From NCBI GenBank assembly GCA_041571435.1, contig JBFFUI010000028.1, forward strand, positions 1-28,789: a stretch of DNA of 28,789 bases, read 5' to 3'. This document shows positions 1 to 3,000 of this stretch, one piece after another. The number at the start of each line of letters is the position of its first letter. Position 1 is the first letter of the stretch. A program made the position numbers. Origin of the DNA: Sulfurimonadaceae bacterium (lineage in GTDB: Bacteria > Campylobacterota > Campylobacteria > Campylobacterales > Sulfurimonadaceae).

Positions 1-3000
1 CGTATCAAACCGTTTCCCGCCGTCATTGCAGGAGATATCAATGCAGGATTGACACAGTTTGTAGAGCAATACAAAAACTATTTTGATACCAATGCCGGCA
101 GTGAGCATATCTGTCTGGACCTTGCGCCGCGCTATGCCATTATCAAGGATTTCGGTGCCGTTGTCTTTGGCAAAGATGAGAAGGAGGCAAAGGTCATCGC
201 CGACATTGTCAACCATACCATCAAAGCGATGCTGATCGCTGAACAGCTCGGCGGATGGAAAAGTCTTAAACAATCTGATATCTTTGCTATGGAATACTGG
301 GAATTGGAACAGGCTAAATTAAAAAAATAACGAAAAAGGATCATTTATGAAAATCACGAAAAAAGTCACATTTGTTGCTAAAGAGGGGCATGAAAAGCAG
401 CTTTACACCCTGTTAAACACCATGATCGACGCATCCCGGAATGAAGAGGGGTGTCTGCTATACGACATCTTTCAGTATGAGCAGAATCCGAACAAGTTTA
501 TCGTGCTGGAGTCTTGGGCGAATGAAGAGGCGCTTGAAGGGCATAAACAGTCCAAACATTATCAACACTACAAAGCGCACTACGAGGTGCATACTGCTGA
601 AAAATCGAGTGACAACCTCAATATCGTCGGGGACCTTTTTTAACCTGTTGTAGAGCTCAACGTTCTGCAGCGAATCCACACCGACTTCACCCGTAAACCC
701 TAGCCGAGGACTTCCAGGTCGTCGGTATACTTCTCTAAACAGTAGGGTTCGTAACTTGACTTGTAGATGGCATAGTGGGCCGATGCTTTGTGCCCGTCCA
801 ATGCCGCTTCATCCCGCCATGTCTCGACGGCCATAAACTTCTCCGGTCTCTCTTTATACTGTACTATCTCGTAAAAGAGGCAGCCGTCTTCCGCCTTCGA
901 TGGAATGACCATCGCACTCAGCAGTTCTTTCATCTTCTCTATGCCGTCAGGCTTGGCAATAAATGTCACACGTTTTGTAATCGTCATCTTTATCTCTTTA
1001 TCTATTTTTGAAAACAGGATTATAGCAGAGACTAGAGTCCCGGCGCTTTCCACATCGACGTCGTAATACCCTCATCTACTAATTTCAGTTGAACACGGTA
1101 CGCCGCTTTCCATTGCTCTGCAATATCACGGTATTTATTGTGATTTTCGCTGTCCGGCTGATAGCTTTTTTTCCATTTAACCAGACTTTTTGCCACTTCG
1201 TCGATACTGCTGTATTCACCTATTGCCACACCGCAGGCGAAAGCACCCCCGAGTGACGTTGCTTCATTGACATTGGGGATCTTCACCTCTTTACCCGTCA
1301 CATCCGCCAGGATCTGTGACCATAAGTTCCCTTTGCTCGCCCCGCCGGCAAAGGTTATGGTCTCACTCTGTACCCCCGTAAATGCAAATATCGCTTCCAG
1401 GTTCAGCATCGAGACGACGGCCGCATTCTCTTCGAGCGAACGGAACATGGCCCCTTTGGATGATAAAGAAGGATCGATTGAAAGGTTCAGAAATGACGGT
1501 GCGGCATGGTACCACTTGCCGTAATGCATCGCATCGGAGAAGATCGGCAAGATACCGTTTGAGCCGACAGGAACCTTTGCCGCGAGCTCTTCGAGATAGG
1601 CATACGTGTCGATTCCCCGCCGTTTTGCCTCTGCTGTTTCACCTTGGCACAGGGCATCCCTGAACCAGCGCATCACCAGACCGGAGAAAAAGGTGATCCC
1701 CTCGGCCTGCGATATGCCCGGAATCACATGCGGATTGATACGGATGTCCATCTTGGGATCGGTCTTGGCCGTCGGCATGTTGACCAGCTGCTGCCAGAAT
1801 GTGCCGCCCAAAACAGCGACCTCCCCGGCTTCGACAACACCCAGTCCTGCAGAACCGAGCTGTACATCACCCCCGCCCGCAACAACCGGCGTACCGACTG
1901 CCAGCCCCGTCTCCGCTGATGCCTGTTTCGTTACTTCGCCTATGATACTGCCGCTCTCATAGACCGGGGGGAAGATGTCATCTTTGAGTCCCACTTTTTT
2001 GGCCATCTCCGGGACCCACCGGCGCGTTTCAAGTGAAAAGATGCCTGAGGTACCGGCATTGGACGGTTCGCTTGCGATCACACCCGAGAGTTTTGTCAAG
2101 ACCCAGTCGCTGATCATGTTCATCGATGCCGTTTTTTCATAAAGATGCGGTCTGTTTCGTTTCAGCCATAACAATCGCGGCAGCGCCCCAAGCGCATAGG
2201 TCTGACCGCTTTGCGCATAAAATGTTGCTTCGCTTTTCGGAAACTCCCTGTTAAGATCGGCAACCTCCCTGTCCGCTCTGGCATCCACATTGGCAACCCC
2301 GAAAATCTCCTTGCCATCTTTGTCATAGAGCACTATTCCCTCGCGCATACTGGTCGCCGTCACAGCCTTGATGGAAGAGGCTTTGATCCCGGCCTTGAAG
2401 ATGGCTGTCTTGATACACTCTTTCAGAATATCCCAATTTTCCGTATAGTCAAAGCCCATAGAGTTGGCCACACCCTCTTCACTCAGGTGCGTCCACTCCT
2501 GCTGGCCGATACTGACCTGTCTCCCCATAGTGTCGAATATAACGGCCCTACCGCTTCCTGTCCCTGCATCGATGGTTAAAAAGTAGGCTCTGCTCATTAT
2601 CTTCTTCCTTACATAAATCTTCTCTGTATTGTAGCAGAGCCATACGGATAGTTTACTCAGTGCTACCCCGGTTGGTTTTCCTCTCTAGTACGCTGTGCAA
2701 CGTCATTTTATGTACTGTGCGATAGAAAACGCTTACTAAAGATTTACCACTCTGAGCTATACTTTATACAACTGTACTATAAAGGCTCAGCATGATTTCA
2801 AATCCCTCTTTATTTATCCCGTTGGTCATTACATCTACCCTGCTCTCTGCCGGCACCGTCTCTGTAAAACCGATCGATCCTTCTCTTGTCGTCTACAACG
2901 GCAATCTTGGTCTGGTACATGAAAATAGAAAAATGGAACTGGATTCCGGCAAACAGGCCCTTGTCTATAATGATGTCGCCAGCAGTGTTGTCACGGACAG

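Follow-up and report, generated by a model that had tools for sequence, protein, structure and literature searches.

The window analysed here is a stretch of 28,789 nucleotides on contig C28 of the genome under study, a Sulfurimonadaceae bacterium (G000). Its first 2.6 kb carries the 3' end of an aldolase gene (ALD), two genes for ABM-domain proteins and a gene for an FGGY kinase. The last 109 codons of ALD lie at positions 1..330 on the plus strand, and the 5' part of the gene lies outside the window on a second contig of G000, C51, where it starts at position 984 and runs along the minus strand. Comparison of the ends of all 66 contigs revealed that the last 141 nt of reverse-complemented C51 are identical to the first 141 nt of C28, the sole overlap of this kind among them. 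The reading frame of ALD is unbroken across the overlap, yielding a protein of 390 amino acids from an ATG at C51:984 or of 393 amino acids from a GTG at C51:993. The first-pass annotation, which had the two contigs meeting inside the aldolase gene, is thus borne out by exact identity and one continuous frame.

The luxS gene (C51:1084-1593, plus strand, also outside the window) is divergent from ALD, with its start 99 nt from that of ALD, and passes its family model NF002602 (291 vs. a cut-off of 197). Within the window, the gene for the first ABM-domain protein, ABM1 (347..643, plus strand, 98 amino acids; PF03992, 67 bits), begins 16 nt past ALD. Facing it are lsrK (1032..2597, minus strand, 521 amino acids) and, 44 nt past lsrK, the gene for ABM2 (700..987, minus strand, 95 amino acids; PF03992). 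The order luxS< ALD> ABM> <ABM <lsrK describes two converging gene pairs with a divergent luxS, not one operon. All five genes are found in one contig of L082, a 94%-identical metagenome-assembled genome. A scan for promoters and terminators gave chance-level results (4 vs. 3.0 and 2 vs. 2.4, respectively).

The kinase scored 836.7 in a profile search against the NF008187 equivalog cut-off of 528, with the next family at 195.6, in agreement with its earlier assignment as LsrK. Its best match in the PDB is E. coli LsrK (5ya0, E 1.6e-188; runner-up, E 8.5e-31), to which it is 54% identical. The lsrK product is therefore LsrK by family, and its predicted activity is the phosphorylation of DPD (AI-2) at C5.

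ALD corresponds to the aldolase portion of PRK08324/RhaEW aldolase-SDR proteins, its 3' end giving the C-terminal match to NF006196/NF006197 and its C51 part matching PF00596 (60 vs. 22.2 bits). The gene stops at window position 330, without a C-terminal SDR domain. A short relative of ALD matches only positions 1-400 of the 657 in the aldolase/SDR models (413 vs. cut-offs of 831/627; the match ends at model position 400-410), and on this relative the earlier description of a 393-aa class II aldolase that matches only the aldolase part of these families is upheld.

A structural model of the L082 ALD (pLDDT 94) retrieved 3m4r (E 1.8e-19) as well as FucA and DrdA in Foldseek, with 16-17% identity between ALD and DrdA in the fold search. 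Sequence searches of the PDB with ALD recovered 3m4r only, and an hhalign comparison of the aligned ALDs with E. coli FucA could not be used. The motifs GN, PSxE, HxH and xHG are invariant in 30 of 30 ALDs and, with residues mapped by motif, parallel G28-N29, S71-E73, H92/H94 and H155 of FucA. Judged from sequence and model, ALD is a class II aldolase by family, with the fold, the three metal His, the catalytic Glu and the phosphate-binding motifs of that class. ALD is found once per genome in all 82 genomes that possess it, split over contigs in three. A second PF00596 match in G000 (C14:21373-21966) was considered as a terminal enzyme and rejected, as no His triad is visible.

Distribution of the module and the missing Lsr components

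The same 301 genomes of the order were searched with each gene. LsrK was found in 87 of these genomes and 18 of 26 families, which agrees with the 45 of 150 genomes counted earlier, and ALD was found in 82. The two are shared by 79 genomes, with LsrK only in 8, ALD only in 3 and neither in 211; such co-occurrence counts overstate significance, as related genomes are not independent. Five of the eight LsrK-only genomes are under 90% complete, while the other three are at least 90% complete but in 240-360 contigs, and all three ALD-only genomes are under 90% complete. Four well-sampled families (94 genomes) have neither gene. Taxon names shown by the searches were Sulfurimonadaceae, Sulfuricurvum, Sulfurospirillum and Arcobacteraceae. 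The ABM subfamily occurs in 69 of the 301 genomes (67 after removal of weak matches in G196 and G232), 63 of them with LsrK. luxS is present in 83 of the 87 LsrK genomes, the other four being fragmentary. Because luxS is nearly universal in the order (280 of 301), this co-occurrence is uninformative and was rejected as evidence.

Physical linkage was assessed in 81 lsrK loci, namely that of G000 and 80 more drawn from 79 genomes out of the 86 others with LsrK (seven short or partial cases were left out). ALD lies in 41 of these loci (34 within 2 kb), ABM in 34 (25 within 2 kb) and a cupin gene, described below, in 25 (all within 2 kb), and the commonest order is ABM-ALD-lsrK-(cupin). luxS lies in only five, four of them within 2 kb, compared with 12 of 41 in the first-pass annotation. 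The link to luxS is weak. In three separate families, a gene of the module adjoins luxS (f1; G036; G063, where ABM precedes luxS). No transporter, regulator or reductase recurs among the 81 neighborhoods.

LsrF and LsrB were sought in 80 of the 87 LsrK genomes, leaving out seven of the least complete. None exceeded the LsrF cut-off, with lower-scoring matches in 13 of 80 (best 58.7 vs. 297, C-terminal half only), and none exceeded the LsrB cut-off, with lower-scoring matches in 5 of 80 (best 30.9 vs. 384). The E. coli K-12 control passes both cut-offs. In G000, there is no tblastn match to LsrB, LsrC or LsrD and no match to LsrR. These results confirm that the Lsr importer and LsrF are missing, as first reported, and settle two worries attached to that report: the DeoC/LsrF-family genes of LsrK-bearing relatives reach at most 58.7 bits, and the LsrB test is no longer weak now that its control passes.

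The further claim that these bacteria recycle DPD rather than sense AI-2 does not follow. dCache_1 receptors have been reported in Campylobacterota (PMC12503165, available part), and G000 has three dCache_1 matches, all weak and below cut-off, as well as two AI-2E-family transporters. The module could have the same chemistry and yet mainly serve to scavenge or quench the AI-2 of neighbors by way of a transporter other than Lsr, perhaps alongside dCache_1 sensing. Such a role would fit the transporters and weak receptor matches, the rarity of physical linkage to luxS (5 of 81 loci), and the unidentified low-affinity route by which E. coli is said to import AI-2 (10.64898/2026.06.09.730415, in the part available). 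We consider it unlikely, since no transporter or regulator recurs beside the module, luxS is missing only from four fragmentary LsrK genomes, module genes adjoin luxS in the three families above, and an operon shared with mtnK-mtnA, described below, points to recycling of SAM by-products.

ABM-domain and cupin proteins

The two ABM-domain proteins are 46% identical to each other and share 25-27% identity with E. coli LsrG. Against the LsrG model NF007791 (cut-off 135), ABM1 scores 35.6 and ABM2 28.4, with E. coli LsrG as a positive control at 191.8. The earlier naming of two LsrG proteins is therefore not confirmed. We take N25, E54, H65 and H70 to be the active-site residues of E. coli LsrG; the positions of E54, H65 and H70 are invariant and N25 is not kept in 15 of 15 aligned rows, a set that contains no non-LsrG ABM control. 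Conservation of these Glu and His residues may be a common trait of ABM proteins. We regard ABM1 as a putative P-DPD isomerase that resembles LsrG; neither protein is LsrG by family test. The second ABM copy is a local feature in a survey of the subfamily, and L093, which is syntenic with G000, has a cupin at the position of ABM2.

This cupin, a protein of 123 amino acids, is absent from G000 and was overlooked in the earlier gene inventory. It occurs in 33 of the 301 genomes, 32 of them with LsrK, and follows lsrK in 25 of the 81 loci. Among 80 metagenome cupin loci, lsrK is found in 49 and ALD in 22. The 87 LsrK genomes divide into 49 with ABM only, 18 with cupin only, 14 with both and 6 with neither. 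The cupin is thus present in 18 of 24 LsrK genomes that have no ABM vs. 14 of 63 that have one, and tends to substitute where ABM is missing.

Relatives of the cupin (49-53% identity) come after lsrK in a complete Salmonella lsr cluster, where lsrG is also present, and sit between lsrK (899.6 vs. 528) and a true lsrF (425.6 vs. 297) in a Bacillus-like cluster. A distant relative follows lsrK on a Deinococcus plasmid. The presence of the cupin beside lsrK in canonical lsr clusters ties the present module to AI-2 chemistry, with ALD in the slot of LsrF. An lsrK-adjacent 'sugar phosphate isomerase' has been given a possible role in the processing of AI-2-P (PMC3420918, available part, where the word 'epsilon' does not occur), and we infer that this is the same cupin. 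As Salmonella has LsrG and the cupin, and 14 Campylobacterales genomes have ABM and the cupin, it may do something else.

Aldolase-SDR fusions and the DHAP shunt

ALD is fused to an SDR in 13 of the 82 ALD genomes. Its relationship to the RhaEW/YuxG and PRK08324 aldolase/SDRs is that of their aldolase part, and both of the two fusions scored pass NF006196. It differs from them in that 69 of 82 ALDs have no SDR, the loci are without rhamnose genes, and even a fused ALD stays below the TIGR02632 cut-off (450 vs. 568).

Seven of the 13 fusions lie behind mtnK-mtnA, and two more are near a lone or split mtnA; the mtnK and mtnA genes beside fusions pass their families. The DHAP shunt and 5-deoxyribose salvage (MtnK-MtnA-Ald2; DrdK-DrdI-DrdA) likewise convert a SAM by-product to DHAP via a class II aldolase (PMC10986504 and PMC6079011, both as available in part). 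Unlike these systems, G000 has no MtnK or MtnA match, and its module combines an FGGY-type kinase with a 390-aa two-part aldolase that is only distantly similar to DrdA (16-17%). Other mtnK-mtnA loci have a separate 200-aa PF00596 protein (four tested). This small aldolase of the DHAP-shunt type is absent from 10 of 10 genomes with an intact fusion, but present in 14 of the 16 checked (of 23) MtnK genomes with a short ALD and in all three MtnK genomes without LsrK that were checked. Genomes with the fusion no longer have the short ALD; comparison with syntenic relatives shows that G123 and G173 have lost it cleanly from the ABM-ALD-lsrK operon. In G239, the order ABM-mtnK-mtnA-ALD/SDR-lsrK can be read across a 127-nt contig overlap. 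Most simply, these observations mean that a single enzyme is able to work in the DHAP shunt as well as in the LsrK route.

All 10 fusions from genomes with MtnK retain the NAD-binding and YxxxK motifs of the SDR, and all three from genomes without MtnK, one of which is only 79% complete, have lost them. The SDR is also degenerate in three lsrK-adjacent metagenome fusions. This pattern suggests that the SDR acts on the aldehyde formed in the shunt, where it is required, and is dispensable for the LsrK route. The idea that short fused forms are contig truncations proved partly wrong: contig ends do interrupt those of G239 and G131, in which the SDR motifs are retained, whereas in G260, G008 and G196 the genes are whole and the SDR is degenerate. 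As a homologue search with ALD yielded only close relatives and no outgroup, the ALD tree is unrooted; in this quick tree, the 12 fused rows fall together on one side of a branch (SH-aLRT 99). In a FastTree phylogeny of LsrK, the LsrKs of fusion genomes nest among those of short-ALD genomes at at least three places (G173 with G110/G100; G118 within f8; the G206 group).

MtnK is over its cut-off in 44 of the 301 genomes, comprising 32 of the 87 LsrK genomes vs. 12 of the 214 others. This enrichment, together with the service of ALD relatives in 5-deoxyribose salvage, would suit a kinase that does not act on DPD but belongs to a pathway resembling that of fucose (isomerase, FGGY kinase, aldolase), with 5-deoxyribose or a different Pfs-derived pentose as its substrate, and the 49 of 82 ALD genomes without MtnK would otherwise have no such route. 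Nevertheless, LsrK scores far above the next family (836.7 vs. 195.6), is kept in the 32 genomes that already have MtnK, and forms with the cupin the same pair as in canonical lsr clusters, which makes this explanation very unlikely.

The closest plasmid ALD-SDR (Shinella, 43.5% identity) immediately follows a true lsrF, with a kinase other than LsrK, indicating that members of this family can occur together with LsrF and need not take its place. The Shinella protein might catalyze an upstream step, and the fold also includes epimerases, dehydratases and decarboxylases. ALD could thus produce no DHAP at all, but isomerize or epimerize P-DPD or cleave on the other side (e.g. to 2-phosphoglycolate and hydroxyacetone), the module being one of detoxification. 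This we hold to be quite improbable, as no other cleavage enzyme co-occurs, the fused form fills the position of Ald2 behind mtnK-mtnA, and the FucA-type Glu is invariant. The earlier proposal that the aldolase replaces LsrF is well supported by the 79 shared genomes, the absence of LsrF from 80 of 80 and the interchange with the DHAP-shunt aldolase. The Shinella ALD-SDR beside lsrF speaks against it.

A proposed route from DPD to DHAP

To our knowledge, the only described route of AI-2 use ends in the LsrF thiolase, within an inducible uptake operon. The module is real, conserved and coherent. It is best explained as a variant of AI-2 catabolism with a probably new enzyme activity, a cytoplasmic salvage of DPD without the Lsr importer, LsrR or LsrF. 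DPD is made by Pfs and LuxS, and G000 has Pfs-family and AcsA genes. LsrK would phosphorylate DPD to P-DPD, and ABM, or the cupin in other lineages, would convert P-DPD to P-HPD. P-HPD would be a pentulose-1-phosphate with a C4 keto and a C5 methyl group, the 4-keto analogue of 5-deoxyribulose-1-phosphate and one oxidation step away from it. ALD may bind P-HPD as any class II aldolase binds its substrate, with the metal stabilizing the DHAP enediolate. In the least certain step, the C3-C4 bond of the hydrated P-HPD ketone would break to give DHAP and acetate, requiring neither CoA nor a dehydrogenase. This cleavage is predicted to be irreversible, and AcsA could re-activate the acetate.

In the Lsr system, LsrG isomerizes P-DPD and LsrF moves an acetyl group to CoA, yielding DHAP (PMC8016206, available part). 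The proposed route shares with it an orthologous LsrK, an ABM-fold partner, the lsrK-adjacent cupin of the Salmonella and Bacillus-like clusters and, as predicted product, DHAP. It differs in having no LsrF or LsrB (0 of 80 genomes) and, in G000, no LsrR, in an ABM protein far under the LsrG cut-off, and in a terminal enzyme that is a class II metal aldolase, so that acetate and not acetyl-CoA is predicted.

Ald2 and DrdA cleave 5-deoxyribulose-1-phosphate to DHAP and acetaldehyde using a metal and a Glu (PMC10986504; PMC6079011), and RhaEW forms no DHAP without NAD+ (PMC3870299), according to the parts of these papers available. Given this dependence of RhaEW on NAD+, an ALD without an SDR makes more sense if cleavage of its substrate releases an acid in one step. 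The alternative is an initial reduction of P-HPD at C4, catalyzed by the fused SDR or by a reductase encoded elsewhere, to 5-deoxypentulose-1-phosphate, which ALD would split by retro-aldol cleavage to DHAP and acetaldehyde. While this would need only known class II aldolase chemistry (PMC6079011, as available), and while fusions immediately precede lsrK in G239 as well as in four metagenome loci and Shinella pairs an intact ALD-SDR with LsrF, the SDR is absent from 69 of 82 ALDs and decays where MtnK is missing, no reductase family recurs near the 81 lsrK loci, and G000 has no orthologous SDR (best identity 26%). We therefore think prior reduction unlikely.

Salvage of DPD through ALD to DHAP is the reading we favor, with moderate confidence. 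More tentatively, and at somewhat less than even confidence, we suggest that ALD is a new activity of the class II fold, a CoA-independent P-HPD hydrolase (retro-Claisen, to DHAP and acetate). It would complete a second pathway of AI-2 catabolism, one without an importer, in more than a quarter of Campylobacterales; its SDR-fused form would work in DPD salvage as well as in the DHAP shunt, and the lsrK-adjacent cupin would be a second P-DPD isomerase. Our literature search, which took in few subscription papers and no supplements, found no account of the module, so an earlier description is possible, and no class II aldolase that hydrolyzes a 2,4-diketone.

If the favored reading is true, a widespread module that pairs a kinase with a cleavage enzyme yet has neither importer nor repressor would offer direct evidence in the long-standing debate over AI-2 as a signal or a waste product, and two routes of SAM by-product salvage would be joined through one enzyme. 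The module allows an in vitro test with four proteins, and it offers candidate functions for two protein families, the SDR-less RhaEW-type aldolase and the lsrK-adjacent cupin. Caminibacter and Nitratiruptor are listed as AI-2 makers only, with no mention of LsrK, in the available part of PMC6022435. Low AI-2 release by module-bearing Campylobacterales would be predicted.

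MtnK loci and a second aldolase-fold protein

MtnK is present in 44 of the 301 Campylobacterales genomes, and most of the mtnK loci fetched (L143-L159) have the gene order mtnK-mtnA followed by a class II aldolase of 200 aa, which scores under both the MtnB and the FucA cut-offs. This arrangement is apparently a DHAP-shunt-like cluster that is undescribed for Campylobacterales. A sugar ABC transporter follows mtnK in loci L153 and L154 (genomes G210 and G263, respectively), and the small aldolase was not found in either genome. The 15 genomes of family f23 encode MtnK-like proteins of ~350-390 aa that score 149-220 bits against a cut-off of 275 and align from the model start up to model positions 270-305 only.

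The genome under study itself encodes a second PF00596 protein (contig C14, 21373-21966, minus strand). No His triad is visible in its 197 aa, and it probably represents a protein of the class II aldolase fold that is either divergent or without catalytic activity.

Decaying, duplicated and distant module genes

In genome G054, a match to the RhaEW-type aldolase carries three internal stops and adjoins a partial lsrK (contig C120, 1-1184), and neither ABM nor cupin is present in this 99% complete genome; this is a decaying module. Genome G021 holds two copies of lsrK (L005 and L064), with a genome contamination of 8%.

The order aldolase-lsrK-cupin also occurs on three metagenome contigs of 45-56% GC (L222:993-4704; L215:1455-5284; L197:6001-9197), whose LsrKs cluster with one another. 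Because a close cupin bears the name Motiliproteus sp., Gammaproteobacteria may be further carriers of the module. A Deinococcus psychrotolerans plasmid carries MFS transporter-lsrK-cupin (L246:5698-9381), with no further lsr genes beside lsrK in 18 kb. On Shinella plasmid NZ_CP093338.1 (L163:6853-17991), an aldolase-SDR lies with a DeoR, a true lsrF, a sugar ABC transporter, a non-LsrK FGGY kinase and a GlpD-like oxidase. This gene set is a catabolic cluster for some polyol, and here too a P-HPD-like diketone may be an intermediate.

Other genes of the contig

A four-subunit pyruvate:ferredoxin oxidoreductase operon occupies positions 4284-7436 of the window. In Sulfuricurvum-like genomes and genome G131, lsrK lies near this operon as well, which is probably plain synteny. 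Tandem beta- and alpha-class carbonic anhydrases stand behind an OprD-family porin (11255-14229). The content of positions 16127-28676, comprising an AddAB-like helicase/nuclease pair, a cbb3 oxidase operon and carA, is ordinary.
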